This document shows positions 3,927 through 50,114 of a DNA stretch of 64,000 nt, piece after piece. The position numbers were made by a program, and so were the translations under genes. The notes beneath the pieces are model-generated. The model was not told the origin of the DNA, searched no databases, and saw only the letters and a program-made list of their open reading frames with translations. The stretch is from the NCBI GenBank assembly GCA_050743265.1, contig JBOGEN010000203.1:16907-80906 (forward strand), written 5' to 3'. Position 1 is the stretch's first letter. Every line of letters starts with the position of its first letter. This DNA is from Actinomycetes bacterium (GTDB lineage: Bacteria > Actinomycetota > Actinomycetes > JBOGEN01).

Positions 3927-4096
3927 CAGCAAGCGTCAACAAGCCGACGATCCTTGGCCGGACCAAGACGACGTTTCACCCCCGCACTGGAGATGACGGC
4001 TGAGTCGACGCCGTCGGCAGGCGGAGCCCTCGGTCGAGTCGCCGTCACGGGACCGTAAGGAGCGACGGCGGCCCTGTCCGCGCGGCTGTCCCTAGT

Positions 4097-22642: not shown

Positions 22643-22718
22643 ACGCCGACGATGCACAGCCGAACACCGTTGACCGAACGAGCGCACCGCTGCGCTCGGG
22701 ATCACACCTGGGGGTGAC

Positions 22719-27229: not shown

Positions 27230-27483
27230 TCCGCGCGGCCCGCGCCGAGGGGGCAGTTGAGGCGACCGAGCACGGTCGGCGTGGACGTGTACGGCGAAGA
27301 CGCCGGACGTACCGACGAAGCGCGACGGGAGACCATCGATCCCGATCCGCGTGCGCGTGGAGCGGGCCACGTTTCGCGTGCCACGGACGTGCCGCTGGTT
27401 CGTCATCGAGGCTGTCTCGGACGGTAGATCACGGTCGGCCGATCATGGACTGATTTGCGAAGACGCTGGTCAGCCGTGGGGGT

Positions 27484-28860
27484 TTGCCGTATGTTTCCCT
27501 CTTCGTCACGGCTTGCCGCCTCTCTCACGGTCGGGGCGTGCCCGGTGCCGCATCCGTGCCGCGTCTGCTATTGCCGTTGGAGGCGAGGTTGAGGGCCGTG
27601 GGGCTGCGCATACGAACCCTGGCGTCGGTCTGTGTCGTGGTCGGGGTCACCGCCCCGGCGGCCCTCGCCTCGCCGGCCGCGGACCGGGTGGCGGCCGTCG
27701 CGGCGGAGGAGCCGCGGGCGGTGTACGTGTCCACCTCCGGGGTGCCGCACTGGGACATCGCCGACGTGAAGAGCATCCGTGCCGGGCGGGGCTGGCACAC
27801 CGGCGACCCGAACTCGATCACCAGCTCGTGGCGGTCGTCGCTGAACACGGTGATGGCGCAGATCGCCTCCGAGAACCCAGACGCGGTGTTCCACACCGGG
27901 GACCAGGTGCAGGGCCGGTGGGGCGTCGACGTTGACCACACGGGCATCTTCGGCCACGTGGGCACCGAGGCGGAGAAGAAGGATGCCGTGCTCGCCGCGG
28001 GCAACGCGTACTACGGGGAGATGAAACGGTTCTGGTCGGCGCACGGGTTCACCCACGGCACCAACCTGTTCCCGGCGATGGGCGACCACGAGATCGGCGA
28101 CATGGGCCCGGGCGTCGACCACGTCAAGGTTCTCCCGCCCAGCGACTTCCGCTACCGCGCGTTCAATGACTGGAAGTACGCCTGGGCGCGCAACTACACC
28201 GCCTCGGGCACCAAGTACGCCTCCCGCCCGGTCGGCGCGCAGCAGGAGAGCACCGCCTACTCGGTGCGCCTCGGCCCGTTGCTGCTGATCACGGTCAACC
28301 CGTTCTGGAAATGGGACGACGGCATCCACGCCCGCATCGGCGGAGCCCAGCTCGACTGGCTCGACCAACAGATCGCCACCGCCCGGGCGAACGGTGTCGA
28401 CCACGTCCTGGTCCAGTCCGAGATCCCCGTCCTGGACCCCAACCGGGTCTCCGGCTCCTCCGAGCTGCTGCTCGAGGGCCGCCGCGACTCGGCGTTCTGG
28501 AAGACGCTGGTCCGAGACCAGGTCGACGTGCTGCTCGCCGCCGAGTTCCACGACATGACCACCTACTCGAACTCCGCGACCACCCCGGTGCAGGTCGTCC
28601 ACGGCGCCAACATGGGCAGCGCCCGGGCGAACTACCTGGTGATCCGCGTCTACGCCGACCGGCTCGAGCTCGAGCTCAAGCAGATGAGCGGCACCGTGAC
28701 GGACACCAACCGCCTCTGGCAGACCAGCACCCAACGGCCGCCCCGCGGCGTGCGCATGAACACCGGCGCCACCACGGTGGGAACGATGACCATCGACAAG
28801 ACCACCAACCCACCCACCCTGGCCAACCGCACCGGCTTCCTCCGCGAAGGCATCGAGTAG
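27484..28860 (+). CDS. secreted metallophosphoesterase (calcineurin-like / purple-acid-phosphatase-like)
   Basis: The metal-binding motifs are GDQVQGRW, GDHEIGD and AEFHDM. The likely real start is the GTG at 27598, which has GGAGGCGAGG upstream and gives a signal peptide LASVCVVVGVTAPAALA. Confidence 0.75.
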   Translation: MPYVSLFVTACRLSHGRGVPGAASVPRLLLPLEARLRAVGLRIRTLASVCVVVGVTAPAALASPAADRVAAVAAEEPRAVYVSTSGVPHWDIADVKSIRAGRGWHTGDPNSITSSWRSSLNTVMAQIASENPDAVFHTGDQVQGRWGVDVDHTGIFGHVGTEAEKKDAVLAAGNAYYGEMKRFWSAHGFTHGTNLFPAMGDHEIGDMGPGVDHVKVLPPSDFRYRAFNDWKYAWARNYTASGTKYASRPVGAQQESTAYSVRLGPLLLITVNPFWKWDDGIHARIGGAQLDWLDQQIATARANGVDHVLVQSEIPVLDPNRVSGSSELLLEGRRDSAFWKTLVRDQVDVLLAAEFHDMTTYSNSATTPVQVVHGANMGSARANYLVIRVYADRLELELKQMSGTVTDTNRLWQTSTQRPPRGVRMNTGATTVGTMTIDKTTNPPTLANRTGFLREGIE

Positions 28861-34606: not shown

Positions 34607-36726
34607 CACGCGACCCTTTCCAGGCGGACGGCGCACACCTTGAACTCGGGCATGCGGGAGATCGGGTCCAGTGCGCGGCTCGTCACGAGGTTCGCCCGCT
34701 CGTCGGCCGGCCAGTGGAAGGGCAGGAACACGGTGTCGGCGCGCAGCGTGTCCCGGAGCCTCGCCGTCGCGAGCGTCCGCCCCCGGCGGCTCACCACCTG
34801 GACCACCTCCCCGTCGCTCACACCGACCCGGGTGGCGAGGTCGGGGTGGACCTCGACGAACATCTCCGGCGCATCGGCGAGCAACGTCGGAACGTACCGG
34901 GTCTGCGCCCCGCTCTGGTAGTGCGTGAGCACCCGCCCCGTCGTCGCGTACACGGGGTACGCCTCGTCGAGGTCCTCCGCCGGAGCACGGTGCTCCACCG
35001 GGACGAACCGGGCCCGGCCGTCCGGCGTGGCGAAGCGGTCGAGGAACATCCGCGGCGTCCCGGGGTGCGGCACGTCTCCCGGCCTGTCGGGGCAGGGCCA
35101 GAACACGCCTCCCTCCGACTCGACCCGCTCCCAGGTGATGCCGGAGTAGTCCGCCGGCCCTCCCTCGCTGGCGCGCCTCAGCTCGTCGAAGACCTCTCTC
35201 GGGTCAGGCGAGAACCGCTCCCCGTGGCCGAGGCGTGCGGCGAGCGCAGCGAGTATCTCCAGGTCGGTCCGTACGCCCTCGGGAGCGTCGAGGGCGCGGC
35301 GCCGCCGGATCACCCGGCCCTCGAGGTTGGTCAGCGTGCCCTCCTCCTCCGCCCACTGCGTCGTCGGCAGGACGACGTCGGCGCGTCGCGCGGTCTCCGA
35401 GGGCACGAGGTCGCTCACCACGAGCAGGTCGAGGGCGTCAAGACCCGCCTCCACCCGTGCCGAGTCCGGTGCGGACACGACGGGGTTGGTGCCGACGACG
35501 AGCAGGGCGCGGGGGCCGCCGTCCGTGCCGAGGGCCTCGAGCAGCTCGACCGCCGAGAGGCCCGGCCCGGGGAGCGCGTCGGGGGCCACGCCCCACACGC
35601 CGGCGACGTGGCGGCGGGCGTCCGGATCGTCGATGCGGCGGTACCCCGGGAGCTGGTCGGCCTTCTGGCCGTGCTCTCGACCGCCCTGGCCGTTGCCCTG
35701 TCCGGTGACGCACCCGTACCCGGAGCCGGGGCGGCCCGGCAGGCCGAGGGCCAGCGCGAGGTTGAGGAACGCGGACACGGTGTCGGTGCCCTTGCTGTGC
35801 TGCTCCGCCCCACGGGCGGTGAGCACCATCCCGCGTCCCGCCCCACCGAGCAGCCGGACGGCCTCCCGCTGCTGCGCGACGGGGACGCCGGTGATCCGCT
35901 CTACCCGCTCCGGCCAGTACGCGGCCACGACCCGCCGAACGTCGTCGAACTCACGGGTGCGGGACGCCACGTACGCCTCGTCCACGAACCTCTCGACGAG
36001 GGCGAGGTGCAGCAGGCCGTTCGCGAGGGCGAGGTCGGTCCCCGGCGTGGCCTGGAGGTGCAGGTCCGCCACCCGGGCGGTGGCGGTCTCCCGCGGGTCG
36101 ACGACGACGAGGCGCCCGCCACGTCGACGCATCGCGGTGACGTGGCGCATGAGCGGCGGCATCGTCTCGGCGAGGTTGCCCCCGGCGAGCAGGACGGCGT
36201 CGGCCTCGACGAGGTCGTCGAGCGGGAACGGGAGACCCCGGTCGGTGCCCAGCGCGCGGAGGCCTGCCGCGGCCGCCGAGGACATGCAGAAGCGGCCGTT
36301 GTAGTCGATGTTCCTGGTGCCGAGGGCGACACGGGCGAACTTGCCGAGCTGGTACGCCTTCTCGTTGGTGAGGCCACCTCCGCCGAGGACGGCCACGGCG
36401 TCCCGGCCGCTCTCGTCCTGGACACGGCGTACCTCGGTGGCGACACGGTCGAGCGCGGCGTCCCACGAGACCGGCTCGAGCGGCCCGCCGCGCGCCGCCC
36501 GCATCAGCGGGGTCGTGAGCCGTGCAGGGGCCGTGAGCAGCTCCGCCGCCGTCCAGCCCTTCTGGCACAGCCCGCCGCGGTTCGTCGGGAAGTCCCGCGG
36601 GGCGACGTCCACGGACCCCTCGGACGTCGTCCGAAGCGCCATGCCGCACTGCAGCGCGCAGTACGGGCAGTGCGTGCTGACCGGGGTCGTCATACGCGTC
36701 AGCGTGGTGGAGGTCCGTTTCGGCAA
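34606..36726 (-). CDS. assimilatory nitrate reductase catalytic subunit (molybdopterin oxidoreductase, NasA/NasC type)
   Basis: The N-terminal 4Fe-4S motif is HCPYCALQCGM, and molybdopterin oxidoreductase and molydopterin-dinucleotide-binding domains follow. The TTG start has GGGAGA 6 nt upstream. An alternative ATG lies 11 codons in. Confidence 0.85.
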   Translation of the reverse strand: MPKRTSTTLTRMTTPVSTHCPYCALQCGMALRTTSEGSVDVAPRDFPTNRGGLCQKGWTAAELLTAPARLTTPLMRAARGGPLEPVSWDAALDRVATEVRRVQDESGRDAVAVLGGGGLTNEKAYQLGKFARVALGTRNIDYNGRFCMSSAAAAGLRALGTDRGLPFPLDDLVEADAVLLAGGNLAETMPPLMRHVTAMRRRGGRLVVVDPRETATARVADLHLQATPGTDLALANGLLHLALVERFVDEAYVASRTREFDDVRRVVAAYWPERVERITGVPVAQQREAVRLLGGAGRGMVLTARGAEQHSKGTDTVSAFLNLALALGLPGRPGSGYGCVTGQGNGQGGREHGQKADQLPGYRRIDDPDARRHVAGVWGVAPDALPGPGLSAVELLEALGTDGGPRALLVVGTNPVVSAPDSARVEAGLDALDLLVVSDLVPSETARRADVVLPTTQWAEEEGTLTNLEGRVIRRRRALDAPEGVRTDLEILAALAARLGHGERFSPDPREVFDELRRASEGGPADYSGITWERVESEGGVFWPCPDRPGDVPHPGTPRMFLDRFATPDGRARFVPVEHRAPAEDLDEAYPVYATTGRVLTHYQSGAQTRYVPTLLADAPEMFVEVHPDLATRVGVSDGEVVQVVSRRGRTLATARLRDTLRADTVFLPFHWPADERANLVTSRALDPISRMPEFKVCAVRLERVA

Positions 36727-36809
36727 GAGTTCTCCCGTGTTACGCCGCCGTCAACGACGGTTCATCGCCGCGGCGGGTGGGCGGTGAGACCGGAGCCGTC
36801 GGGCCGGGC

Positions 36810-38225
36810 TCAGACGCGAGCCGAGGCGAGCCCCGGCACGCGCGTGGCGAGCACGCGCGTCCTGAGGTAGCACCACCACGTCACGCCGAGGGACAGGACG
36901 TAGAAGGCGAGGAAGGCGGTGAGCGCGGCGGTCACCTCCCCGGTCTGGGCGATCGAGAACCCGAAGGCCCGGGGGATGAAGAACCCGCCGATCGCCCCGA
37001 TCGCGGACGTGAACCCGAGCACGGCCGCGCTCTCGCGGCGGCTCCGCGTCAGCGCCAGCTCGCGATCGACGCTGGACCCCGAGGGCACACCCTCGAGTGC
37101 CTGCGCGCGGAAGATGGCCGGGATCATCCGGAACGTGGACCCGTTCCCGATGCCCGTCGTTACGAACAGCAGCAGGAAAGCCCCGAGGAAGGCGGCGAAG
37201 CTGTCCGTCCGCAGGGCCCAGGACACGGCGAGCACGCCCAGGCCCATGACCGCGAAGTTCCAGAACGTCACGCGGCTCCCCCCGAGCCGGTCGGAAAGCC
37301 AGCCGCCGAACGGTCGTGCCACCGACCCGACGAGCGCGCCGAGGAAGGCGTACCGCGCGACCTCGATCGCGGGGAACTGGGTGCTGATGAGCAGTGGGAA
37401 CGCGGCCGAGTAGCCGATGAACGACCCGAACGTGCCGAGGTAGAGGAAGGACATGACCCAGGTGTGACGCCGCCGTGTCACGACGACCTGGTCGCGGAAC
37501 GACGACCTGGCGGTGCTGAGGTTGTCCATGAACAGCCATGCGCCGATCACGGCGACCGCGATGAGGGGCATCCACATCAGGCCGGCGTAGGCCAGGTGGA
37601 TGCCGGCGCCGATGGCGATGACCGCGGGGACCGCGAGCTGGACGATGCTCACCCCGATGTTGCCCCCCGCCGCGTTCAGCCCCAGGGCGAACCCCTTGCG
37701 TCCCTCCGGGTAGAAGAACGAGATGTTGGCCATGCTCGAGGCGAAGTTGCCGCCTCCGACCCCGGCCGTCACCGCGGCGACGAGGAACATCCAGTACGGC
37801 GTGTCCGGCCGGCTCACGCAGGCGACGAGGAGCCCGGTAGGCAGGAGCAGGAGGAACGCACTGACCATCGTCCAGTTGCGCCCGCCGAACCTCGGGACGG
37901 CGAATGTGTACGGAAAGCGCATGAACGCGCCCACGAGGTTCGGCAGGGCGACGAGCCAGAACAGCTGGTCGACGGAGAAGTCGAAGCCGGCCGCCGGCAG
38001 GCTCACCGCCACGACGCTCCACAGCAGCCAGACGGAGAACCCGAGGTTCTCCGCGAGGATCGAGAAGGCGAGGTTGCGCCCGGCCACGCGGCGTCCTGTG
38101 CTCTCCCAGAACGCGGGGTCCTCGGGCGTCCACCTGTCGATCCATCGGCCTGGACGTCGCCTCAGGACATCCGCCTCGGCCACCTCGCCGGGCTCGGAAC
38201 GGTCGGCGTGCGTGGTGACGGTCAT
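36810..38225 (-). CDS. narK: NarK/NasA-type nitrate/nitrite MFS transporter
   Basis: It is a 12-TM MFS protein with NNP-family Gly-rich motifs. The ATG MTVTTHADR is preceded by GGGAGGTGG. The ORF-track start lies inside that RBS. Confidence 0.85.
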   Translation of the reverse strand: MTVTTHADRSEPGEVAEADVLRRRPGRWIDRWTPEDPAFWESTGRRVAGRNLAFSILAENLGFSVWLLWSVVAVSLPAAGFDFSVDQLFWLVALPNLVGAFMRFPYTFAVPRFGGRNWTMVSAFLLLLPTGLLVACVSRPDTPYWMFLVAAVTAGVGGGNFASSMANISFFYPEGRKGFALGLNAAGGNIGVSIVQLAVPAVIAIGAGIHLAYAGLMWMPLIAVAVIGAWLFMDNLSTARSSFRDQVVVTRRRHTWVMSFLYLGTFGSFIGYSAAFPLLISTQFPAIEVARYAFLGALVGSVARPFGGWLSDRLGGSRVTFWNFAVMGLGVLAVSWALRTDSFAAFLGAFLLLFVTTGIGNGSTFRMIPAIFRAQALEGVPSGSSVDRELALTRSRRESAAVLGFTSAIGAIGGFFIPRAFGFSIAQTGEVTAALTAFLAFYVLSLGVTWWCYLRTRVLATRVPGLASARV

Positions 38226-38472
38226 AGCGTCCACCTCCCAAAGTCGAAAGGGACGCTAAGACGGGCGTGTTACCCCCAGGTCACATCCAGGCGCACCACG
38301 GAAAACTCCGTCGCACCGTGGCCACCCACGGGTGTGAGAACACACGGACGCCGCTGTGCAGCCGGGGGACCATCCGGATGGACGCGAGGAGCCCGCGAAG
38401 GACCGCACCTCATCCCACACCCGAGCCTCGACGTCGCCCGGCGCCGGTGCGAGAGGAGAAGGCGGAGGCGTC

Positions 38473-39210
38473 TTACAGAGTGCGGGCGTTGTCTTCTCCG
38501 GCGCGGAGGAACAGCTCGGAGCGACGGAGTCGGAACTCGGTCGGGAGGACCTGGATGTCCCTGATGCGGTCGATTCGGAAGGAGCGGATGTCGTCACGGA
38601 GGCGGTCCCAGGTGAGCGCGTACCAGATGGGGACGTTGTAGTAGAGGAACTGCAGCTCGATCTCGCGTTCGCTGAGGGTTCCGTGTTGGTCCTGGTACCG
38701 GATCAGGGCGAGCCGCTGGTTTGCGAAGGCGTCGAGCAGCGGTTTGGTCAGCCCCGCTGCCGGTGCGACGTAGGTTGCCAACACCCGATCCGAGGCCAGC
38801 TCACCGACGAGGACGCGGCGCCGCATGGCGAGGATTCGTCGCGCCTGGGTGGGCGCGAACGCTGCGCTGACCTTGCGTACGATCGAGCGTGAGTCCTCGA
38901 GCAGGAGTGGGGAACCCACCTTCTCGGCGATGGTCAGGCTGACCAGCAGCCCAACGGCTTCCGACTGGTTGAGGTGTACCCGGCCCAGGGACCAGCCCTG
39001 CTCCAGGCGAAGGCCCCCGCCCCTCCCGCGATCGGCATCGATCGGTGTGCCGAGATCGCGGAGGACCGCCAAGTCGCGATGCATGGTCCTCACGCTGACC
39101 CCGAGCTCGCCAGCCAGCTCCGCCGCGGTCGTGTAGTCGCGTTCGGCCAGCTGGATCTTCAGCGCCTCCAGCCGCTCGATCCGGCTTCGCCCGGCCCGCC
39201 CGCTGACCAC
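38473..39210 (-). CDS. YafY/PafBC-like HTH + WYL-domain transcriptional regulator
   Basis: The HTH is YTTAAELAGELGVSVRTMHRDLAVL. The WYL region is LIRYQDQHGTLSEREIELQFLYYNVPIWYALTWDRLRDDIRSFRIDRI. The long N-terminal ORF-track extension is antisense to the divergent ABM gene and is rejected. Confidence 0.7.
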   Translation of the reverse strand: MVSGRAGRSRIERLEALKIQLAERDYTTAAELAGELGVSVRTMHRDLAVLRDLGTPIDADRGRGGGLRLEQGWSLGRVHLNQSEAVGLLVSLTIAEKVGSPLLLEDSRSIVRKVSAAFAPTQARRILAMRRRVLVGELASDRVLATYVAPAAGLTKPLLDAFANQRLALIRYQDQHGTLSEREIELQFLYYNVPIWYALTWDRLRDDIRSFRIDRIRDIQVLPTEFRLRRSELFLRAGEDNARTL

Positions 39211-39279
39211 CCAACAAATATGACAGTGGGAGTCATGTTTGTCACTACCGTGGGGCCATCGACGGAAGGAGCACCCACC

Positions 39280-39576
39280 ATGCACATCGCGGTCGCGCCG
39301 TTCACGCTCAAGCCCGGCATCACACAGGAAGCACTGCTGCGCCGGTCGGACGACTTCGAGGAGAAGTTCGTCCAGAAGCAGGACGGCATCCTCAAGCGGA
39401 TCCTCGTCCAGGACGCCGAGGGCAGCTACGCCGACATTGTGTTCTTCGAGGACCAGGAAGCCATCGACCGCGTGGTCGAGGCCGAGCAGAACAGCGAGGT
39501 CTGCGCCGCGTTCTTCTCGATCATGGAAGACGACGGCTCTCACCGCGTCTACGAGGCCCTCAAGACCTACGAGTGA
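39280..39576 (+). CDS. ABM/Dabb-type antibiotic-biosynthesis-monooxygenase-like small protein
   Basis: The ATG MHIAVAPFTLKPG has GGAAGGAG 9 nt upstream. At 98 aa the size is right for a ferredoxin-like alpha+beta barrel. Confidence 0.55.
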   Translation: MHIAVAPFTLKPGITQEALLRRSDDFEEKFVQKQDGILKRILVQDAEGSYADIVFFEDQEAIDRVVEAEQNSEVCAAFFSIMEDDGSHRVYEALKTYE

Positions 39577-40720
39577 TGGCAGCGCCACGGGTTCCCCTCA
39601 AGGAGCAGCTGCTCAACCACGACAAGGTCTCGCTGATCGCGGCCGAGCTCAAGGGCGTGCATGCCGCGTTCAGAAAGGACGAGTTCGTCCACCACGTGCT
39701 GGACAAGTTCCCGGAACTCGAACTCAAGGCCCGCATCGCCTGGATCGCCACATGCCTGGAGGCACACCTGCCGGGCGACTACCGGCGGGCAGTGGGCATC
39801 ATCCTCCGCTCACTGCCCGCCCCCAACGATCCGTCGCTCTCCGACGGCGACTTCGGCGACTTCATCTATGCCCTCTACGCCGAGCTCGTCGCCCGGCAGG
39901 GATGCACTCAGGGCGACCTGGAGTTCTCGCTCAGCGCCCTCCGTGAACTCACCATGCGCTTCTCGGCGGAAGACGCGATCAGGCCGTTCATCAACGCGTT
40001 CCCCGACGACGTGCTGGCCGCGCTCAGCTCCTGGACCGGCGATGAGCACTACCACGTCCGCAGGCTCTGCAGCGAAGGCACGCGACCCAAGCTCCCCTGG
40101 TCGAAGGCGCTGGAGACCCCGCCGGAGGCCGCCATCCCCATTCTCGACAAGCTCTACTGCGACTCGACACGGTTCGTCACCCGGTCCGTCGCCAACCACA
40201 TCAACGACATCTCCAAACTCGACGCGGAACTCGCGGTCGACACCCTCGAACGATGGACGAAAGCCGGACGGCAGCACCAACACGAGATGGACTACCTCGT
40301 CCGACACGCAACGAGGTCACTGACCAAGGCGGGACACCCCCGAGCACTCGCGCTCATCGGCATCCCGCCGCACGCACCCGTCGCGGTATCGCGACTCGCA
40401 GTCGCCAAGCGCGTCGAACTCGACACCGCACTCGAGTTCTCGTTCGACATCCACGCGAGCGAGGACGCCGAGGTCATCGCCGACTACGCCATCTACTACC
40501 CGGGCAGCTCAGGCAAGCTGACCCGGCGCAAGATCTCAAGCTCAGACGGCTCTCCCTCGCCAAGGGCGAGCCGCACACGGTCAGCAAGCGCCACACGCTC
40601 CGTGGCGACATGACGACACAGGCCATTCGCCCCGGGCGGCACGAACTGGAACTGCTCATCAACGGCAACCCCAAGGGCAGGCGTGCCTTCCAGGTCCTTG
40701 AAGCCTCTACCAGCCCATGA
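39576..40720 (+). CDS. DNA alkylation repair protein (AlkD-like HEAT-repeat glycosylase family) with an apparent -1 frameshift near the 3' end (~40525)
   Basis: TGATG couples it to the ABM gene. The N-terminal 310 aa are in one frame. The expected C-terminus, KLRRLSLAKGEPHTVSKRHTLRGDMTTQAIRPGRHELELLINGNPKG...*, is in the +1 frame and ends at 40720. Confidence 0.6.
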
Positions 40721-41049
40721 CAGCCCCGAGTCAGCGACCCGCGCCCCTCAATCCACAGACACCGGCGAGACAGTCGACCCGGACCAACTGGCCGAGTACG
40801 AACGCCGGCTCGACGCGCTCGACCGCGGACGGCTCACCCGGCAACGCGAAGCCTGCAAGCAGCTTCAGGCCGAGCGCGTGGCGCCGACCCGGGCTACCGT
40901 CACCCGAGGGCCTGCCAGCTCCTCGACCATGGCTGGCGCGACTGGCCTGCTCAGAAGGGGGGAACGGCGGAGAGGCATGAGCACGACCCCCACCGTTCAA
41001 GGCGCACGCCCCACGTGGGAACTCCGCGCGTCACGCCGTGGCCTACCGG

Positions 41050-41991
41050 CTAGGTCAGATCGAACTCTGCCCACACTGGGCGGTGGTCCGACCCCGCCGC
41101 GTCCCTGCGCTCCCCAGGGTCCTCGGTGACCGATCCGACCTGGGTAGCCACGGTGCTCACGGTCTTCACCCGACCCACCAGCGCATGGCTGACCAACAGA
41201 TGATCGATGAGCTCACCACGGCCCTCGAAGACACGAGAGAACCGCTGCTCCACCGGGATCAGCGGCGCCAGGTTCCACAACCGCGACCCGTCGCCCCGGT
41301 CGGCCCGGTCGAACCCGCCCCCGCCCAGCTCCGAACCCGGAGGGCCCTGCAGCGACTGGGTCGTGGCCGCTTCCGGCTCGTCGTTGAGGTCCCCGGCCAC
41401 CACGACGGCGCGGCGACGCCCATCTGCGGCAAGGAGCCCCGTGACGTAGGCCCGTACGGCCGCCGCCTCACCCGCCCGCCGATGCAGCGCGTAGACGCCG
41501 CAGCGGACCCGCTCGTCCTCGTCGAGAGGGTGGAACCGACCACCCGGGAAGGTCAACAGCTTGCTCTTCAGATGGCTGCTGACCACGTCGATCCCGACCC
41601 CTTCGACCTCGGCGTGGACCCGCAGCGCCGGCCGGCCCATCGCTGCGATGGTGGAGCCGTCGTCACCGACCTGGATGGGCAGCAGCCGGTCCGGGAAGGC
41701 CACCACCTGCTCAACTTCGCTCAACGGGAACCGGGAAAGCACCCCGACCCGAATACCACGCCCATCCGGGCCGGCCAACGCCGTGTGCCAGGTGCCGCCA
41801 AGCCTGCCCACCAAGTCGCCCAAGGCTGCCGGCTGGCCCACCTCTTGCACCGCCAACACATCCGGCGCCAGCCCGGTGATGGTCTCGGCCAGCGAGTCCA
41901 GCTTGGCCTCGTAGGCCGCACCCGAGGACGGACCGGCCTCCACGCCCGGACGGAACAGGTTCTCCACATTCCATGTGGCGATGACGACCAT
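41050..41991 (-). CDS. endonuclease/exonuclease/phosphatase (EEP) family protein
   Basis: The ATG MVVIATWNVENLF is followed by LAVQEV, SDHRPVWAEF and other EEP catalytic motifs. Confidence 0.7.
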   Translation of the reverse strand: MVVIATWNVENLFRPGVEAGPSSGAAYEAKLDSLAETITGLAPDVLAVQEVGQPAALGDLVGRLGGTWHTALAGPDGRGIRVGVLSRFPLSEVEQVVAFPDRLLPIQVGDDGSTIAAMGRPALRVHAEVEGVGIDVVSSHLKSKLLTFPGGRFHPLDEDERVRCGVYALHRRAGEAAAVRAYVTGLLAADGRRRAVVVAGDLNDEPEAATTQSLQGPPGSELGGGGFDRADRGDGSRLWNLAPLIPVEQRFSRVFEGRGELIDHLLVSHALVGRVKTVSTVATQVGSVTEDPGERRDAAGSDHRPVWAEFDLT

Positions 41992-42275
41992 CACGCCCCC
42001 CAAGGTCAGCCGCTTCGCACCCCGCAGAGCCTAAGACCTCCGACCCAACCACCTCGCGACGTCGGCGGCGACAACCGGCGCGCCGCCGGCGGTCGCATCT
42101 GAGATGCGGTCGGCGAGGTCGGAGACGCCGGTGGCCCCCGGTGCGGCACGCTCGTCCCGTTGAACGCGCGGCACCCGGGCATCCGCTGACAAGAGGGCGT
42201 CCGCGAGGTCGACAGCCCAGAACACGGGAAGCACGCTCTTGATGGGCGAGGGCTCTGGCTGGTGCCGTCCGCGGT

Positions 42276-42500
42276 GTGGTCCCGGCCAGGCGTGGCGCTG
42301 CACTGGGAACAACCCGCCCTCACACGGACCGCAGGCAGGCCGTTCTCGGCGTCACGCGCTCCCGGATCATGAGGACGCTCGCAGAGCGGGCCCACACCAC
42401 TAGCAGCCTTTCCGCCTCGGTGGGGATCAGCCCCGCCTCGGCGTCCACCCACGCCGCTGCCCTGCCAGAAGACGGTGGCTATGACCGACACGCCACTTAA
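42276..42500 (+). pseudogene. ArsR-family HTH regulator fragment
   Basis: RIMRTLAERAHTTSSLSASVGISPASASTHAAAL resembles the ArsR recognition helix region LGLSQSTVSHHL. It is truncated to about 70 aa and has no proper start. Confidence 0.3.
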
Positions 42501-42786
42501 CGTCCTCCGTATTGAACTCAGTCATACAGTGCTGACTCTGTAGACCGCGCGGGGACGGTTTCTGACCCCCGTAGGTCGTTGCCGGGGCCGCCGTAGCCGA
42601 CGTCGCGTCCCACGTCCTGGAGTCGTGGCTCGTCGTTGTGGCCCGTTTGTGGCCAGGTTCGAGTCCGGCCTCAGAGTCTCGGATCGACGGGCTCGGACTC
42701 CAGGGCGAGGACGGCGAAGACCGCTTGGTGCACCTTCCAGAGTGCCTCGTGGTCAACAAAGGCCGTGAGTGCTTCGAGTCCCAGCT

Positions 42787-43975
42787 TCAGTCATCGTTGC
42801 CCTCCCTCCGGGTGAAGATCGCCATCTGCGTCGGGGCGCCGAGGGCTTCGTCCAGGTCCCAGATGCCTCGGCGCTCGACCTGGTAGCCGTAGGTCGTGGC
42901 GACGCGGTCGGACCACTCGGAGAACTCCGCGCGGGTCCACTCGAACCGGTGGTCGGGGTGCCGCCTGCCCACGAGCCCTTCGTAGAGCACGTTGTACTCG
43001 CTGTTGGGAGTGGTCACGATGACAGCGCCAGGCTTGGCCGTATCGAATACGACGCGTTCGAGGGCCTCCAGCCGCGGAAGGTCGACATGCTCGACGACTT
43101 CCATCAGCACGGCGGCGTCGAAGCCGGCGAACCGCTCGTCCTCGTAGGTGAGGGCGCTCTGGAACAGCTCGACACGCGCGGCTTGCCGCTCGCTCATCTG
43201 CTCGACGCGCAGACGTCGTGCGGCGTACTGCAGGGACCGGGCAGACACGTCGGATCCGACGATCCGAGTGAACGCTGGGGTCTTGACCAGTCCGTCGAGG
43301 AGCTGACCCGGGCCGCAGCCCAAATCGATGACGGACTTGGCCCCCAGTTCGAGCAGGACCTGGTGGACCGCTTGGTGCCGTTGGGTGTTGAGCGGCATCC
43401 GCTTCTCCTCCGGCTGCAGGACTTCCTCGTCCACGGCCGGCTCGAGGGCGGACTCGTCCTCGTCGCCGAGCTCGGCGAGCCGGGCGAGCGCGACGCGGGT
43501 CAGTCCGCCACGGCGGCCGAGGTAGCGGCGGGTGATGAGGTTCGCGTCCGGGTGGGTGGCGAGCCAGCCCACGCCCGACCGCATGAGCTTGTCGACCTCC
43601 TCGGGGCTTTGCCAGTAGTGCTTGGACTCATCCAGCACCGGCAACAAGACGTACAACTGGTTCAGCGCATCGGCGAGCCGCACCGTGCCACTCCGCCATG
43701 GCCACTCCCAGCAGGGACGAGGCGGCGTAGGACCGGTCGTTGACGTACTGGGCGAGGCTGAAGTCCGGGGCGTTCTTGGCGCGGGACCTCGCAAGGCGGA
43801 TCGGGTCGACGTCGAGCATGAGCGCGACGGTGCAGCGCTCCTCGGTCGCTTCCGGGTAGAAGACCGTCGCCGTGCCGAACGACTGCTTGAAATCCTGCAC
43901 GCGATCGGGGTGCTTGTGCAGGAGGTAGCCGAGGTCGGTCGCCGGCTGGTGGGTCGTCGACACGGTCAGAAGCAC
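42787..43975 (-). pseudogene. hen1: hen1 (bacterial RNA 3'-terminal 2'-O-methyltransferase) remnant with an internal deletion and frameshift; no adjacent pnkp
   Basis: The N-frame reads LLTVSTTHQPATDLGYLLHKHPDRVQDF...YVNDRSYAASSLLGVA and stops at 43628. The C-frame from 43794 reads RLADALNQLYVLLPVLDESKHYW...VIDLGCGPG...VEHV. The two frames are joined by only about 10 codons, where intact Hen1 has about 100 aa. Confidence 0.55.
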
Positions 43976-44070
43976 GCGCTCAGTCTGCCCGAATAGGGCG
44001 ACCCCCTTTCGGTCTGTAGCCGATAGTCCCGATCCCGGGGAATCAGTCCGTCGACTCGAAGGCTGAAGGA

Positions 44071-44274
44071 ATGCCGCCGCCAAGTCACGCCAGCCCTCAG
44101 ACCGGTCCTGGTGATCGTCGGCGCTCAGGACGCGATGCTCGACTCGCTCGACACCGCTCGGCGGCTGGACCAGTGCTTCCCCAGGCGACCGTCCGCCTCC
44201 TCCCCGATGTCGGGCACTCCGTCGTCGGCCAGACAGCCCCGATCCTCGACTTCCTGCACGATCGCCAGACCTGA
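44071..44274 (+). pseudogene. C-terminal fragment of an alpha/beta hydrolase
   Basis: PVLVIVGAQDAMLDSLDTARRLDQCFP and LLPDVGHSVVGQTAPILDFLH sit in two different frames. They match the catalytic-His tail of alpha/beta hydrolases. There is no upstream body. Confidence 0.3.
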
Positions 44275-44282
44275 CTCGTTCG

Positions 44283-45248
44283 TCAGCTGCCCTCCGGCAT
44301 CCGGATGCCCGAGGCGGCCGCCGGACGATGTGTGAACCGTGCGGTGACCACCGCCTTCTCGCGCACGGACAGCGTCACCTCGGTGAACCCGGCACGCCGC
44401 CCACGTCGCAGTGACCGGGCCTGCACGCCCATCTCGCGACCGTCGGCCGGGCGAAGGTACTGCGCGTACCCGTCGGACAGGGCCCACTCCGGCCCCATCA
44501 CGGCCTCTGCCGCAGCCGCCGCGATGCCGTACAACGCGCCTCCTTGCACGTGGCCGACCCGGTTGCCCACCGCACGCGTCACGGGGACCACGCCGCACAG
44601 CGCACCGTCCTCGCGCTCCTCGAGCGCCCGGGGCTCGGTCAGCAGTGCCGCGACGGAGCACGTCCGTGCCCGGGCCTGGGTCTCGAGGCTCTGGACCTCC
44701 GCCACGGCCTCCCGCTCCTGCGCGTCCAGGTCGTCGGGGACCAGGACAGGAAGCGCGACGTCCGCATCGGACTCCCACGGCAAGGGCGCGAGCACACGTC
44801 CGTCGGGGGACGGCAGGACGACGAACCACCCGTGCGCAGCGAGCACGGGCTGCCCACCGGAGTCCTCGACCGTGCAGTGTGTGTGCCCATCCCCCGGATC
44901 GCCGGTGGACCAGAGAACCCGCGCGGTCGCGGTGAGCCGTCCCGGCGCGGGCTCCCGGAGATGGTGCAGGCTCAGCGACGTCGTCCCCAGCCGCAGGCCG
45001 GCGCCGAGCGCACTGCGTACCGCCGAGCCCATCGCCAGGTCCGCCAGGCTCGCCAGCTCTCCCGGGGAGCCGGCGCACCCGGTGCCCGGGGAGGTCTGCG
45101 GGTCGAGGACCAGCCGCTCGCCCGCGCCTCCCGGGGCACCGATTCCCAGGAAGTGTCCGTAGAAGTGCATGCCGAGCGCTCGGGTGCGGGCGACTGCGAC
45201 GAGTGCCCGGTCGCGGACGGCGAGGCTTGGGTCCACTGACGTGTGCAT
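44283..45248 (-). CDS. tandem hotdog-fold (PaaI/4HBT-type) thioesterase family protein
   Basis: The second domain carries HVQGGALYGIAAAAAE and the first has a similar fold. The start was chosen at the ATG MHTSVD. The ORF-track 5' extension is unsupported. Confidence 0.6.
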   Translation of the reverse strand: MHTSVDPSLAVRDRALVAVARTRALGMHFYGHFLGIGAPGGAGERLVLDPQTSPGTGCAGSPGELASLADLAMGSAVRSALGAGLRLGTTSLSLHHLREPAPGRLTATARVLWSTGDPGDGHTHCTVEDSGGQPVLAAHGWFVVLPSPDGRVLAPLPWESDADVALPVLVPDDLDAQEREAVAEVQSLETQARARTCSVAALLTEPRALEEREDGALCGVVPVTRAVGNRVGHVQGGALYGIAAAAAEAVMGPEWALSDGYAQYLRPADGREMGVQARSLRRGRRAGFTEVTLSVREKAVVTARFTHRPAAASGIRMPEGS

Positions 45249-45295
45249 GCTGATCCTCATCTGGTGAAGGGGCTGCCGGTTCTGCGCGGGCAGCG

Positions 45296-46156
45296 TCAGA
45301 TGCGGTACGGCGATGCTGTGCCGCAGTACGACTGCACCATCTCGTCCGTCGCGCCGAGCGCCTCGGAGACGGCCCACGCGGTGTCGCGTAGGCGTGGTCC
45401 GAGTGTGCGCATCCGCTCGACGGGCATCCGTATCTCGGGTCCGCTGACGCTGAGGCAGCCCACCACGAAGCCCCGGTGGTCGAAGATCGCGGCTGCGACG
45501 GTGTGGATGCCGGGGGTCCGCTCGGCGAACGACGTCGTGTACCCGGCGCGTCTGGCCTGCGCCATCTCGTCCCGAAGCGCCTCGCTGTCGGTCACGGTCG
45601 CGGGGGTCACATGCCGGATCGGACGCTGCAGCACAGCCTCTGCACGGTCCTGGGGCAGAAAGGCCAGCAGGACCTTCCCCGGCGCGCCGTAGGGCAGGGG
45701 GATGGGGACGCCGAGCTCGGTGTAGGTCCTTCGCAGGGGTTGATGGCTCTCGGCCTGGTCGACGACGACGCGCTCGTCGGTGGGGAGCAGCGCGTGCAGG
45801 CCGACCGTCTCGTCGACGTCGTCGCGTAGTGCGGTCATCGGCGGCATCGCGGCCTTGCGCAGCGTCGTGGTCACGGTGTCGCCGCGTACGAGCTGGGCGA
45901 GCAGCGGGCCGGGCGCGTAGCGGCGGTCTGGAGCCTGCCGGACGATCATGTTGTGCTGCATCGCGGCGAGGAGCCGGTGGGCGGTGCTCGTCGTGAGCCC
46001 GGTGGTACGGGCGATCTCGGAGAGAGTCAGGTCCCCGTGCCGGTCCACGAAGCAGCGGAGGATCGCTGCCGCCCTGTCGATGGACTGGACGCGGCCCGCG
46101 GGCCCGCTCCCGGGGGTGTCCGGGCCCGGTGACCGCTCCTGCGCCTGGTCGCTCAT
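45296..46156 (-). CDS. IclR-family transcriptional regulator
   Basis: The HTH is LTLSEIARTTGLTTSTAHRLLAAM and an IclR effector domain follows. The ATG MSDQAQ was chosen as the start. Confidence 0.8.
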   Translation of the reverse strand: MSDQAQERSPGPDTPGSGPAGRVQSIDRAAAILRCFVDRHGDLTLSEIARTTGLTTSTAHRLLAAMQHNMIVRQAPDRRYAPGPLLAQLVRGDTVTTTLRKAAMPPMTALRDDVDETVGLHALLPTDERVVVDQAESHQPLRRTYTELGVPIPLPYGAPGKVLLAFLPQDRAEAVLQRPIRHVTPATVTDSEALRDEMAQARRAGYTTSFAERTPGIHTVAAAIFDHRGFVVGCLSVSGPEIRMPVERMRTLGPRLRDTAWAVSEALGATDEMVQSYCGTASPYRI

Positions 46157-46230
46157 GTCGGGTTGGTGCACGGAGCTGGCATCCCCAATGTCGGCTTCAT
46201 CCCTTGACGGGTGTGGTCGAGAGGCGTAAT

Positions 46231-46270
46231 TTTCCCGAATCGCAACAACAGTATCCCACATAGCGGGAAA
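46231..46270. promoter_or_regulatory. inverted repeat TTTCCCGA-N24-CGGGAAA in the IclR/CoA-transferase divergent promoter region; candidate IclR operator
   Basis: tttcccgaatcgcaacaacagtatcccacatagcgggaaa lies between the divergent start codons at 46156 and 46270. Confidence 0.35.
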
Positions 46271-47502
46271 TGGTGAGGATGGCCGTGCTCCCTCTGGATG
46301 GCTTCCGGGTGCTGGATCTGACTCGGTTCCTCTCCGGGCCGTATGCCTCGATGGTGCTCGCGGAGCTGGGTGCGGATGTGGTGAAGGTGGAGCGGTTCCC
46401 GGAGGGGGATGACTCGCGTCGGTTGGCTCCGAAGGTGAACGGGGAGTCGTATCCGTTCGGCATGCCGAACCGGTCCAAGCGCAGTATCGCGGTGGATCTG
46501 AAGGCGGCGGCGGGGCGGGAGCTGTTCTTGCGGTTGGCGGCGGGTTCGGATCTGGTGATGGAGAACTTCCGCCCGGGGGTGGCTGCCCGGCTGGGGGTGG
46601 ACTATGCGGCGGTGAAGGCTGTCCGGCCGGATGTGATCTATGTGTCGATCAGTGGGTTCGGGCAGACGGGTCCGTATCGGGACCGGCCGGGCTTCGACAT
46701 CATGGCGCAGGGGTTGGGCGGGTTCTTGCGGATGACCGGGCAGCCGGATGGGCGTCCGGCGAAGGTGGGGATCGCGGTCAATGACATCGCCGCGGGGGCG
46801 ACGGCGATCTATTCGGTGTTGGGCGCGCAGTTGCTGCGTCAGCGCACGGGTGAGGGCCAGTACATCGACATCTCGCTGGTGGATGCGGGGCTGGCCTGGA
46901 CGGTGTGGGAGTCCGGGGCCTTTTTCGGTAGTGGGGAGTCTCCGGCGCCGACCGGGACGCGGCATCGGCGTTCGACGCCGTATCAGGCGTACCGGACCTC
47001 GGATGGGTTCGTCACGATCGGCGCGGCGAACGACCGGCTGTGGGAGCGGTTGTGCCGCGACGCGCTGCACCGCCCGCAGTGGCTAAGCGACGAGCGGTTC
47101 GTGACGTTGGCGGACCGGATGGCGCACATCGACGAGCTCGAGGCCGAGATCGAGGCGATCACCACCACCCGGAGCACGGATGAGTGGATCGAGGTGCTGG
47201 ACAAGGCCGGCATCCCGGGTGGGCCGGTGCTGACCTATGAGGAGACGTTGGCCGACCCGCATGTGCAGGCCCGCGACATGCTAGTCGACCTGGACCATCC
47301 GATCATCGGCCCGATGCGCACGATCGGCCCGGGGGCGAAGTTCTCCGACCTGGACTACGCGGTGCGCGGGCCTGCCCCGTGGCTGGGCCAGCACACCGCG
47401 CAGGTGCTGGCCGAGCGGGGGCTGGGCGAGGACGAGATCGCCCGGCTCTTCGACGACGGTGTCGTCTTCGACGCGCACCCCGACCTGCAGCCAGAGCGGT
47501 AG
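46270..47502 (+). CDS. family III CoA-transferase (CaiB/BaiF)
   Basis: RVLDLTRFLSGPYASMVLAELGADVVKVE is followed by ISGFGQTGPY. Alternative starts are 46279 and 46285. Confidence 0.85.
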   Translation: MVRMAVLPLDGFRVLDLTRFLSGPYASMVLAELGADVVKVERFPEGDDSRRLAPKVNGESYPFGMPNRSKRSIAVDLKAAAGRELFLRLAAGSDLVMENFRPGVAARLGVDYAAVKAVRPDVIYVSISGFGQTGPYRDRPGFDIMAQGLGGFLRMTGQPDGRPAKVGIAVNDIAAGATAIYSVLGAQLLRQRTGEGQYIDISLVDAGLAWTVWESGAFFGSGESPAPTGTRHRRSTPYQAYRTSDGFVTIGAANDRLWERLCRDALHRPQWLSDERFVTLADRMAHIDELEAEIEAITTTRSTDEWIEVLDKAGIPGGPVLTYEETLADPHVQARDMLVDLDHPIIGPMRTIGPGAKFSDLDYAVRGPAPWLGQHTAQVLAERGLGEDEIARLFDDGVVFDAHPDLQPER

Positions 47503-47506
47503 CCCT

Positions 47507-47863
47507 GTGTCCACCGATCTGCTTGTCGAGCGCGCCGGACCCGACGGCTCGGTCCCCACGCTGGTGCTGAACCGGCCGGACAGCCACAACGCGATCAACC
47601 TGGGCATGTACCGGGCGCTGCCCGGCCTGCTCGGCCGGATCGAGCACGACTCGAGCGTCAAGGTGCTGGTCGTGCGCGGCGCGGGTGAGAAGGCGTTCGC
47701 CTCCGGCGCGGACATCAGCGAGTTCGGCCAGGTGCGGGCGAACGCGCAGACCGCGACGGACTACAACGAGGCGGTCGCCGCCGCCGCGCGGGCGCTGGCC
47801 CTGGGCCTGGCCGACGAGATGGCGCCCGGTGAGGACCTGGACAAGCTCACCTACGAGTCGTAA
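47507..47863 (+). CDS. enoyl-CoA hydratase/isomerase (crotonase) N-terminal fragment, truncated at ~118 aa
   Basis: The GTG start reads VSTDLLVERAGPDGSVPTLVLNRPDSHNAIN...VVRGAGEKAFASGADISEF. The stop comes about 140 aa before the normal crotonase C-terminus. Confidence 0.5.
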   Translation: MSTDLLVERAGPDGSVPTLVLNRPDSHNAINLGMYRALPGLLGRIEHDSSVKVLVVRGAGEKAFASGADISEFGQVRANAQTATDYNEAVAAAARALALGLADEMAPGEDLDKLTYES

Positions 47864-47978
47864 GGGAGGGCGAACTCGCGATGTCGCTCACCGGCACCAC
47901 CTCGGGCACGATCGGCCTCCCGCGCGTCGACGCGTCGGGCAAGCGCACCTCGCCGTACGCGAGGCGAGGTGGTACGCC

Positions 47979-48452
47979 ATGAGACGAGTGACCTTCCGAG
48001 AGATCGACATCGCCTGCGGCGCACTCCTCGCCGTGCTCGGCGGCGTCGTCCTGGTTCAGAGTCGTCAACTCGACTTCTACCTGGAGGGCATACCCGGGCC
48101 GGGCTTCTTCCCCAGCATCCTCGCGGTCGTGTTGACCGGCCTGGGCGTGGTGCTCGTCGTGACCCGGGTGCGGGCACCCCGGGAGAGCGCACGCGAGTTC
48201 CCGCTCCCGAGCCGACCGCAGGCCACGCGGTCGCTCGCGCTGTGGGCCGCCGTGCTGGGGGCGACGCTCCTGGCGGGCGTCCTGGGCTTTCCCCTCGCGA
48301 TGCTCCTGCTCGTCGCGGTGATCCTGTTCGTCATCGAGGGCCGGCGTGGGATCGGGGCCGTCGCGACGACCATCGCGATTCCCCTGCTCGCGTGGCTGCT
48401 CTTCGCGTCGCTGCTGCAGGTCCCGCTCCCGACCGGCCCGTTCGGGTCCTGA
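47979..48452 (+). CDS. tctB: tripartite tricarboxylate transporter small membrane subunit
   Basis: The ATG has GAGGCGAGGTGG upstream. The 4-TM protein contains GPGFFPSILAVVLTGLG. Confidence 0.7.
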   Translation: MRRVTFREIDIACGALLAVLGGVVLVQSRQLDFYLEGIPGPGFFPSILAVVLTGLGVVLVVTRVRAPRESAREFPLPSRPQATRSLALWAAVLGATLLAGVLGFPLAMLLLVAVILFVIEGRRGIGAVATTIAIPLLAWLLFASLLQVPLPTGPFGS

Positions 48453-48512
48453 CCGTGGTGGGAGGTTGGTCACGGTGACGAACACGGTCCGGACGAATCG
48501 GGGGCGAGGGTC

Positions 48513-50114
48513 GTGACCGACGCGGTGATGGGTCTCATGGACGGGTTCGCCGCGGCGTTCTCGCTCACGAACCTCTTCTGGGTGATCTTCGGTGTGACGG
48601 CGGGAACCCTTGTGGGCGTCCTTCCCGGACTGGGCCCGCCCGCCACCATCGCGCTCCTGCTCCCGCTCTCGGTCAACCTGGAGCCGGCGACCGGGCTGAT
48701 CATGATGGCCGGCATCTACTACGGAGCGAAGTACGGAGGCTCGACCACGTCGATCCTCCTGAACATCCCGGGCGAGGACGCCTCGGTGGTCACCACCTTC
48801 GACGGCTACCAGATGGCCCGGCAAGGACGCGCGGGCCCCGCGCTCGGCATCGCGGCGATCGGCTCGTTCATCGCCGGGACCCTCGGGTTGGTCGGCTTGA
48901 CCTTCCTGGCGCCGGCGGTGGCGGCGATCGCCGTCATCTTCGGCCCCCCGGAGTACACCGCCATCATGGCGCTCGGCCTCAGCATGGTGGTGCTCCTGGG
49001 CGGGAGCTCCCAGGTCAAGGCCTTCGTCTCCGCGGTGGCCGGGTTCCTGCTGTCCACCATCGGCATCGACCTGTTCTCGGGCTCGACGCGGTTCACCTTC
49101 GGCAGGATCGAGCTCGCCAACGGCGTCGAGTTCGTCGCACTGTGCATCGGGCTCTTCGCCATCTCCGAGGTCTTGATCAATGCCGAGGAGAAGACCGGCC
49201 GCTCGTTCTTCAAGGTCCCCCGCCGGCTCAGAGAGCTCTTCCCGAGCAAGAAGGACCTAGCGGAGTCCTCCGGGGCCATCGGCCAGGGTTCGGTCGTCGG
49301 CTTCTTCATCGGGGCGCTCCCGGGGGCCGGCTCGACGGTCGCCTCGTTCGTCAGCTACACGATCGCCAAGCGGCTCTCGCGGCACCCCGAGCGCTTCGGC
49401 AAGGGAGCCATCGCCGGAGTCGCCGCGCCGGAGGCGGCCAACAACTCCGCGACCGCCGGCTCCTTCGTACCGCTCCTCACGCTCGGGATCCCCGGGTCGG
49501 CGAGCACCGCCATCATGCTCGGTGCCCTCTTCCTGTACGGGCTGCAGCCGGGGCCGTTGTTCTTCAACGAGAACCCCGACGTCGTCTGGCCGATCATCGC
49601 GAGCATGTTCATCGGCAACCTCGTGCTGGTGATGCTGAACCTGCCGCTCATCCCGGTGTTCGCGAGCATCCTGCGCATCCCGTACCACGTGCTGTACCCG
49701 GGCATCATCGTCATCTCGATCGTCGGCGTGTACAGCATCAACAACTCGATGTTCGACGTGTGGGTGCTCGCCGTCTTCGGCCTCCTGGGCTACGTCATGC
49801 GCAAGACAGACTTCCCGACCGCACCGTTGGTGCTGGCGTTCGTGCTGGGTCCGCTCTTCGAGCAGTCCATGCGCCGGTCCCTCGTCATCTCCCAGGGCGA
49901 CCCGACGATCTTTCTCACCCGCCCGTGGGCTGTCGTCTTCCTCGTGCTCACGGCGCTTCTCTTCGTCGGTCCGGTGATCACCCGCAGGAGGGCACCGAGG
50001 GAGGCCGAACCTGCGCTGCAGACGTCGCCGGACTCGCCACCGGGGCCGGAGTCGCCACCCGAGGGAAGGGAGGCGGGCTCCGTGCATGCCACCGATCGAC
50101 GAGATGAGCGCTGA
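48513..50114 (+). CDS. tctA: tripartite tricarboxylate transporter large permease
   Basis: LVGVLPGLGPPATIALLLPLS, GAKYGGSTTSILLNIPGE and a duplicated DUF112 topology are present. Confidence 0.85.
   Translation: MTDAVMGLMDGFAAAFSLTNLFWVIFGVTAGTLVGVLPGLGPPATIALLLPLSVNLEPATGLIMMAGIYYGAKYGGSTTSILLNIPGEDASVVTTFDGYQMARQGRAGPALGIAAIGSFIAGTLGLVGLTFLAPAVAAIAVIFGPPEYTAIMALGLSMVVLLGGSSQVKAFVSAVAGFLLSTIGIDLFSGSTRFTFGRIELANGVEFVALCIGLFAISEVLINAEEKTGRSFFKVPRRLRELFPSKKDLAESSGAIGQGSVVGFFIGALPGAGSTVASFVSYTIAKRLSRHPERFGKGAIAGVAAPEAANNSATAGSFVPLLTLGIPGSASTAIMLGALFLYGLQPGPLFFNENPDVVWPIIASMFIGNLVLVMLNLPLIPVFASILRIPYHVLYPGIIVISIVGVYSINNSMFDVWVLAVFGLLGYVMRKTDFPTAPLVLAFVLGPLFEQSMRRSLVISQGDPTIFLTRPWAVVFLVLTALLFVGPVITRRRAPREAEPALQTSPDSPPGPESPPEGREAGSVHATDRRDER

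Follow-up and report, generated by a model that had tools for sequence, protein, structure and literature searches.

In a 64,000-nucleotide (nt) stretch of contig JBOGEN010000203.1 from an Actinomycetes bacterium (assembly GCA_050743265.1; hereafter, the window), we found what are very probably the non-functional remains of a canonical hen1-pnkp RNA-repair cassette, broken by two separate internal deletions and spanning positions 42671 to 44073. An intact cassette measures ~4.0 kb and consists of a leader of ~100 nt, a 1413-nt hen1, and a 2523-nt pnkp, with hen1 and pnkp overlapping by 8 nt; 1403 nt remain in the window, ~65% of the cassette being gone through the two deletions. The locus is an ordinary pseudogene cluster of an already known kind, that is, a pseudogenized member of its family and not a variant or a new system. 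For alignment at the DNA level, we used five intact reference cassettes (L001, L002, L027, L028, and L029, the last from Actinopolymorpha rutila), against which the remnant resolves by blastn into three colinear blocks corresponding to cassette positions 1 to 284, 516 to 1416, and 3815 to 3928. At the 3′ edge, homology to every intact cassette ends at the pnkp stop codon (42669 to 42671; blastn). The parts of the remnant are as follows.

43975 to 42787, minus strand: hen1, from a GTG start at 43975 to a stop codon ending at 42787 (1189 nt, versus 1413 nt in every close intact homolog)
43692 to 43975, minus strand: hen1 5′ block, from the GTG at 43975 through codon 94 of the N-terminal domain that activates the ligase
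43685 to 43692, minus strand: hen1 deletion junction, where cassette positions ~285 to 515 are replaced by at most 7 nt and the frame shifts
42787 to 43684, minus strand: hen1 3′ block, comprising the final third of Hen1_L and the complete methyltransferase domain, ending in TGA (42789 to 42787)
42784 to 42794, minus strand: pnkp 5′ remnant (ATGACTGAAGC), the first 11 nt, with ATG at 42794
42671 to 42784, minus strand: pnkp 3′ remnant (LGLEALTAFVDHEALWKVHQAVFAVLALESEPVDPRL), the last 37 codons with TGA (42673 to 42671), 114 nt from the end of the ligase C-terminal module
43976 to 44073, minus strand: non-coding cassette leader, with blastn homology to the L027 sequence that precedes hen1, as far as position -96

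Two open reading frames (ORFs) on the minus strand carry recognizable parts of Hen1 in different frames, at a level far beyond chance. The ORF at 43628 to 44083 matches Pfam Hen1_L (PF12623) over profile positions 1 to 101 of 242 (E value of 1e-45) and TIGR04074, the NCBIfam equivalog for bacterial Hen1, over positions 1 to 98 of 462. The ORF at 42787 to 43794 (335 codons) matches Hen1_L over positions 171 to 242 and TIGR04074 over positions 169 to 462 of 462 (E value of 1e-120; 403 bits, against a cut-off of 340), as well as Methyltransf_12, Methyltransf_23, and Methyltransf_25, and its S-adenosylmethionine (SAM) motif, VIDLGCGPG, is intact. Hen1_L is thus incomplete, surviving only as two pieces in different frames, and there is no single reading frame of about 465 to 480 codons, while the C-terminal SAM-dependent methyltransferase domain of Hen1 is present. 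A three-phase plot of GC content at third codon positions (GC3) shows a strong minus-strand signal that changes phase at ~43690. These results bear out an earlier model-made note on the sequence (the original prediction), which had recognized N-terminal Hen1 and methyltransferase domains here in different frames.

Alignment to intact hen1 genes, which the original prediction had proposed as a measure of the deletion, puts the net loss at 224 nt (74 to 76 codons). By blastn, window positions 43975 to 43692 correspond to cassette positions 1 to 284 at 83 to 87% identity (the alignment to L027 also takes in upstream sequence), and positions 43684 to 42784 correspond to 516 to 1416 at 81 to 83%, such that ~231 nt have been swapped for at most 7. 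Since 224 is not a multiple of three, the frame changes, and the upstream hen1 frame, read past the junction, stops at 43628. The two Hen1 parts directly abut, with 0 to 2 codons in place of ~76, and not the joint of about 10 codons instead of about 100 that had been predicted. The junction reads GCCATGGCGGA, then GTGGCAC, then GGTGCGGCTC; it lacks a long repeat, and microhomology amounts to a few bases at most.

At the protein level, we searched 5.8 billion proteins for Hen1 (E value of 1e-20 or below), which returned at least 8000 matches, and the best 120 were all 465 to 529 amino acids long, mostly 470. The conceptual Hen1 product of the window is 84 to 87% identical to seven intact homologs of 470 amino acids on both sides of a single gap, which occupies 76 columns in an alignment of 121 sequences (the window and the 120 homologs). 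The lost residues, ~95 to 170, fall within the 230-residue N-terminal domain whose structure has been solved (4DQZ, 4DRF, and 4E6N) and which aligns one to one with residues 1 to 229 of an intact homolog. This N-terminal domain binds and activates the ligase of Pnkp (PMC3675462, which also describes the functions of both Hen1 halves and of Pnkp). The original prediction had allowed that the locus might be colinear with a full-length but short Hen1 variant; no such variant occurs among the best 120 homologs. A naturally short Hen1 or a programmed frameshift was considered and ruled out, given the lengths of these homologs and the deletion of pnkp as well.

A pnkp, stated in the original prediction to be missing from the vicinity, is represented by a remnant of 125 nt (42794 to 42671, minus strand) in the canonical position immediately 3′ of hen1. 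A tblastn search of the whole window with the Pnkp proteins of L001 and L002 returned one significant match (E value of 2e-17), directly after the hen1 stop codon. This alignment nominally covers residues 760 to 840 of the 840-amino-acid Pnkp, but its first part is spurious, and the real match comprises the last ~36 residues; over the last 34, the window is identical to the L001 and L002 proteins at 33 to 34 positions. No other Pnkp, kinase-like, or ligase-like match below an E value of 0.1 was found in the 64-kb window in tblastn searches with the 840-amino-acid Pnkp. At the DNA level, 42784 to 42671 corresponds to cassette positions 3815 to 3928 at 79 to 84% identity in four of the five loci, with a shorter alignment (42753 to 42681) in L028. 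Furthermore, the stop of hen1 and the start of pnkp still overlap as ATGACTGA, precisely the arrangement that is conserved in intact cassettes, and all six intact loci that we fetched have hen1 followed by a co-oriented pnkp with the 8-nt overlap.

An intact pnkp has 839 to 840 codons, begins 8 nt before the end of hen1, and encodes an AAA_33 kinase, a metallophosphoesterase (Metallophos), and a PNKP_ligase domain, the composition expected of Pnkp (TIGR04075). Here, a frameshifting deletion of 2398 nt has removed both the kinase and the phosphatase and has left the ligase only its last 37 codons, again at a junction without a long repeat, and none of the three domains is left. The cassette was complete once, though there is no functional pnkp now. 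The original prediction had also raised the prospect of a pnkp just outside the frames it had rejected, and a stub does lie in the canonical place, although a functional gene does not. Neither a second hen1 nor a second pnkp was found elsewhere in the 64-kb window. Measured against intact systems, the locus lacks a whole Hen1 N-terminal domain, a single hen1 frame, and the Pnkp catalytic domains, and since Pnkp provides all of the healing and sealing chemistry, RNA repair from this locus is impossible. In practical terms, annotation from ORFs overlooks the 125-nt pnkp remnant, PADLOC returns only a generic methyltransferase match, and the 335-codon "methyltransferase" ORF should be called a pseudogene fragment. 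The GC content of the remnant is 0.67, compared with 0.70 for the window.

The leader has kept one conserved element. A motif, GGCAGACTG(R)GCG (43976 to 43995, minus strand), ends 1 to 2 nt before the hen1 GTG and is conserved in six loci (the window, L001, L002, L027, L028, and L029), unlike the rest of the region upstream of hen1, which is not conserved among them. This motif may serve a leaderless transcript as a -10-like element.

We asked how much decay the surviving hen1 codons have undergone. Beyond the deletions, there are no extra stops or indels in the 394 retained codons. At alignment columns conserved at 97% or more, the window has 3 private changes, where the 120 homologs average 1.6 and reach 5 at most. 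When the retained codons of the window are set against intact genes, the ratio of nonsynonymous to synonymous divergence (dN/dS) comes to 0.11 to 0.20, compared with 0.08 to 0.15 for intact pairs at comparable dS. Since there is little extra decay, inactivation was probably recent, and most of the divergence probably accrued under purifying selection, the deletions being recent relative to it. Loss by two repeat-independent internal deletions would, at this locus, have preceded decay by point mutation.

Continued selection would likewise account for a 300-codon methyltransferase frame almost free of further decay, which weighs against regarding hen1 as simply dead. We therefore considered whether the 3′ hen1 frame still yields a stand-alone RNA 3′-terminal 2′-O-methyltransferase, uncoupled from repair, from an internal start. 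For instance, ribosomes that have finished the truncated N-terminal peptide at 43628 might re-initiate ~60 nt further downstream, at the in-frame ATG of KLMRSG. In vitro, the C-terminal half of Hen1 works on its own as an Mn-dependent methyltransferase (PMC3675462), and in the window the methyltransferase domain is whole, SAM motif included, and free of stops over 300 codons, private substitutions are not in excess, and the leader and start of the cassette have been kept. However, no start site or ribosome-binding site is evident for such a product, no short stand-alone Hen1 occurs among the best 120 matches, and the sole known partner of the protein has been destroyed; dN/dS is slightly above that of intact pairs, and a recent deletion explains the low level of decay equally well. 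We consider production of a stand-alone enzyme very unlikely, whether from this ATG or from another internal start, and it is less likely again that a frame expressed in this way acts as a free-standing RNA 3′-end 2′-O-methyltransferase. If it did, RNA ends might be protected, for example, from ribotoxins or exonucleases without repair, and the locus would be a domestication intermediate and not a dead gene.

Other points against a decayed cassette concern the source of the sequence. The contig belongs to a metagenome-assembled genome, so the junctions are known from assembly alone, and an exact look-up of the window proteins in an assembly index gave no independent copy for comparison. One or both deletions might accordingly be artifacts of metagenome assembly or binning, such as a mis-join or a collapsed minority haplotype, with the real cassette intact. 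Mis-joins arise at repeats, though, and neither junction has a repeat beyond a few bases; two independent deletions, two truncated flanking genes, and a frameshift within 2.3 kb would be hard to obtain from a single error; and an assembly full of errors would hardly have left long uninterrupted ORFs, one of them of 2414 codons, in the rest of the window. We regard an artifact as the least probable of the explanations considered. It also counts against the decayed cassette that no close relative was present in the collections searched, and we infer the ancestral state, the order of events, and the insertion itself.

With a decayed cassette as the preferred explanation, its surroundings can be described. 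The remnant lies between two other broken genes, beyond which are genes that look intact.

41050 to 42003, minus strand: endonuclease/exonuclease/phosphatase-family (EEP) gene, apparently intact
42276 to 42500, plus strand: ArsR/SmtB-type helix-turn-helix fragment, an ORF of 74 codons
42501 to 42670: spacer of 170 nt, with a GC content of 0.64 (0.70 for the window)
44099 to 44274, plus strand: alpha/beta-hydrolase tail, the last ~57 codons of a protein of ~290 amino acids, with the catalytic-His region DVGH
44283 to 45248, minus strand: double-hotdog thioesterase, apparently intact and 100% identical to MGH8869913.1

Both of the broken flanking genes had been noticed in the original prediction, and both were confirmed. 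The ArsR fragment matches Pfam HTH_5 over positions 3 to 42 of 47 (E value of 4e-6; 27 bits, above the cut-off of 22) and, below the cut-off, NCBIfam HTH_metalloreg over positions 12 to 51 of 77. It ends 8 codons past the recognition helix, without the wing and the C-terminal (dimerization) helix, and a phmmer search returned no PDB match. The hydrolase tail is split between two frames (PVLVIVGAQDAMLDSLDTARRLDQCFP and QATVRLLPDVGHSVVGQTAPILDFLHDRQT), which are joined by the addition of one C to the C-run at 44179 to 44182; beside this 1-nt frameshift, the first ~228 codons, about 80% of the gene, are absent. The repaired peptide matches Abhydrolase_1 over positions 201 to 240 of 245 below the cut-off (E value of 1e-4), and a HMMER search of 1.84 billion representative proteins returned 200 matches at E values of 1e-3 or below, the best at 6.6e-14. 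These matches cover residues ~220 to 290 of proteins of 270 to 297 amino acids and span the frameshift, and the ~57 residues of the tail align to residues ~229 to 285 of relatives of ~290 amino acids. Of five matching proteins that we scanned (277 to 297 amino acids), three contained Abhydrolase_1 or Abhydrolase_6 and two had no Pfam match; the hydrolase tail had no match in a word-index search of proteins. The nucleophile elbow (G-x-S-x-G) and the core beta-sheet of a hydrolase are missing, the sequence upstream of the tail being the hen1 leader.

The spacer showed no homology by blastn to the flanks of the five intact cassettes, no tRNA or Rfam match, and no terminator or promoter pattern. 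The original prediction had described 42490 to 42560 as AT-richer and palindromic; the GC content does dip there to 0.63 to 0.64, but the inverted repeats are only short and imperfect, and the fold z-score against shuffled sequence is -0.59. A palindrome or terminator at this site was rejected on that score, no terminator-like site having been found. A T-arm-like 13-mer, GGTTCGAGTCCGG, at 42656 to 42668 (plus strand), just past the pnkp stop codon, was considered as an att-site or tRNA boundary of an island and rejected as probably a chance occurrence: no tRNA was detected in the window by ARAGORN or Rfam, and hen1 itself contains a near-identical 14-mer (43538 to 43551). We looked for target-site duplications and terminal repeats around 42671 and 44073 and found none, and a PLSDB search with 36000 to 50000 gave no meaningful match that would point to a plasmid origin.

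Beyond the thioesterase are genes for an IclR regulator, a CoA-transferase, and a Tct transporter, and the opposite flank carries genes for nitrate/nitrite assimilation; the neighboring genes scanned included no integrase or transposase. An ORF of 93 codons (42031 to 42312, minus strand) with a weak GC3 coding signal immediately precedes the EEP gene, sharing its frame and set off from it by one stop codon. Neither Pfam nor the EEP loci of other genomes gave a match to this ORF, and it may be another gene remnant. Several other genes of the window are of separate interest. An uninterrupted ORF of 2414 codons (13634 to 20878, minus strand) encodes an unusually large, multidomain, carbohydrate-related protein with two ThuA domains, a glucose/sorbosone dehydrogenase domain, five PKD domains, a CBM6 domain, and three DUF1349/GH43_C2 lectin-like domains. 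A multicopper oxidase with two inserted heavy-metal-binding (HMBD) repeats is encoded at 22674 to 24464 (plus strand). Two further plus-strand ORFs had no Pfam match: one of 468 codons with a good coding signal (27454 to 28860) and one of 346 codons that failed the GC3 screen (39573 to 40613).

Could the cassette have been acquired horizontally? The hen1 remnant has 84 to 87% protein identity to cassettes in Nocardioides, Mycobacterium, and metagenomic actinomycetes, whereas the flanking host genes reach 50 to 72% at best. For the thioesterase, the next best homolog is 50% identical, and a scan of genome contigs for the EEP gene gave 23 loci at 51 to 72% identity (Actinopolymorpha, Pseudonocardiaceae, and others). 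Such low identities point to a poorly sampled organism. None of these 23 loci has any other neighbor in common with the window, and the ancestral locus therefore could not be reconstructed. Intact cassettes likewise have a different neighborhood in each of the five distinct contexts that we fetched. The genes around them are varied and are RNA-quality-control, defense-like, or mobile: Ro60/TROVE plus vWA in L028 (4067 to 5662); an RlaP nucleotidyltransferase, Schlafen/AlbA_2, two integrases, and an IS110 transposase in L001 (5008 to 9880 and 14607 to 15641); TIR_2 and PLDc_2 in L002 (573 to 1088 and 6389 to 7699); and an integrase in L027 (2353 to 2901). We consider that horizontal acquisition is plausible from these comparisons and from the slightly lower GC content of the remnant, though not proven. 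The original prediction, which saw in the locus the eroding remnant of a horizontally acquired RNA-repair island, thus stands as to a cluster of remnants around a deleted and frameshifted hen1, and acquisition is retained as plausible only.

The following course of events is proposed. The cassette was probably inserted between, or into, genes for an ArsR-type regulator and a hydrolase. A deletion in hen1 would then have removed a net 224 nt, taking residues ~95 to 170 of the domain that activates the Pnkp ligase and shifting the frame, and one of 2398 nt in pnkp would have taken the kinase, the phosphatase, and nearly the whole ligase, again with a shift of frame. Given that neither junction has a long repeat, both deletions are likely to have arisen by illegitimate recombination or end-joining. 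That the remnant has a broken gene on either side suggests repeated deletions at this locus.

The Pnkp-Hen1 cassette occurs in about 250 species of 10 phyla, including Actinobacteria (PMC4411300 and PMC3675462). The view in the original prediction that it is rare in Actinobacteria did not hold, since the named matches among the best 120 Hen1 homologs are almost all actinomycetes (Nocardioides, Mycobacterium, Actinopolymorpha, Mumia, Pimelobacter, Occultella, and Jiangellaceae) and PMC3675462 itself lists the phylum. With the canonical cassette of Clostridium thermocellum and Anabaena variabilis (TIGR04074 and TIGR04075), the locus shares gene order, orientation, and the hen1/pnkp overlap, and what it retains is close to intact actinomycete cassettes in both the Hen1 protein and the end of Pnkp. 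It differs in the nucleotides deleted from each gene, in the frameshifts that result in both, in the broken ligase-activating domain of Hen1, and in a Pnkp without any catalytic domain.

A second point of comparison is the Pnkp1-Rnl-Hen1 system of Capnocytophaga, in which hen1 lies away from its partners and Pnkp1 and Rnl are encoded separately (PMC4411300). This is a known case of a hen1 that does not adjoin a full pnkp and an exception to the statement in the original prediction that bacterial Hen1 is known only beside Pnkp. The exception does not apply here, however, as the Hen1 of that system is of a distant type, only ~20% identical to canonical Hen1 (AvaHen1), whereas the hen1 in the window is canonical and has a pnkp remnant attached. 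Nor does the window contain separate rnl and pnkp1 genes, no other ligase-like or kinase-like match having been found in it.

A third comparison is with the ordinary pseudogene clusters of bacteria that arise by deletion bias after horizontal acquisition. As in these, fragments of genes lie next to one another, the deletions lack long repeats, the GC content is slightly lowered, and the module concerned is a cargo with variable contexts in other genomes; nothing sets the locus apart from them. While it has no bearing on what Pnkp-Hen1 repairs in vivo, it represents, at most, a clean and datable case of a horizontally spread RNA-repair cassette in the course of being lost.

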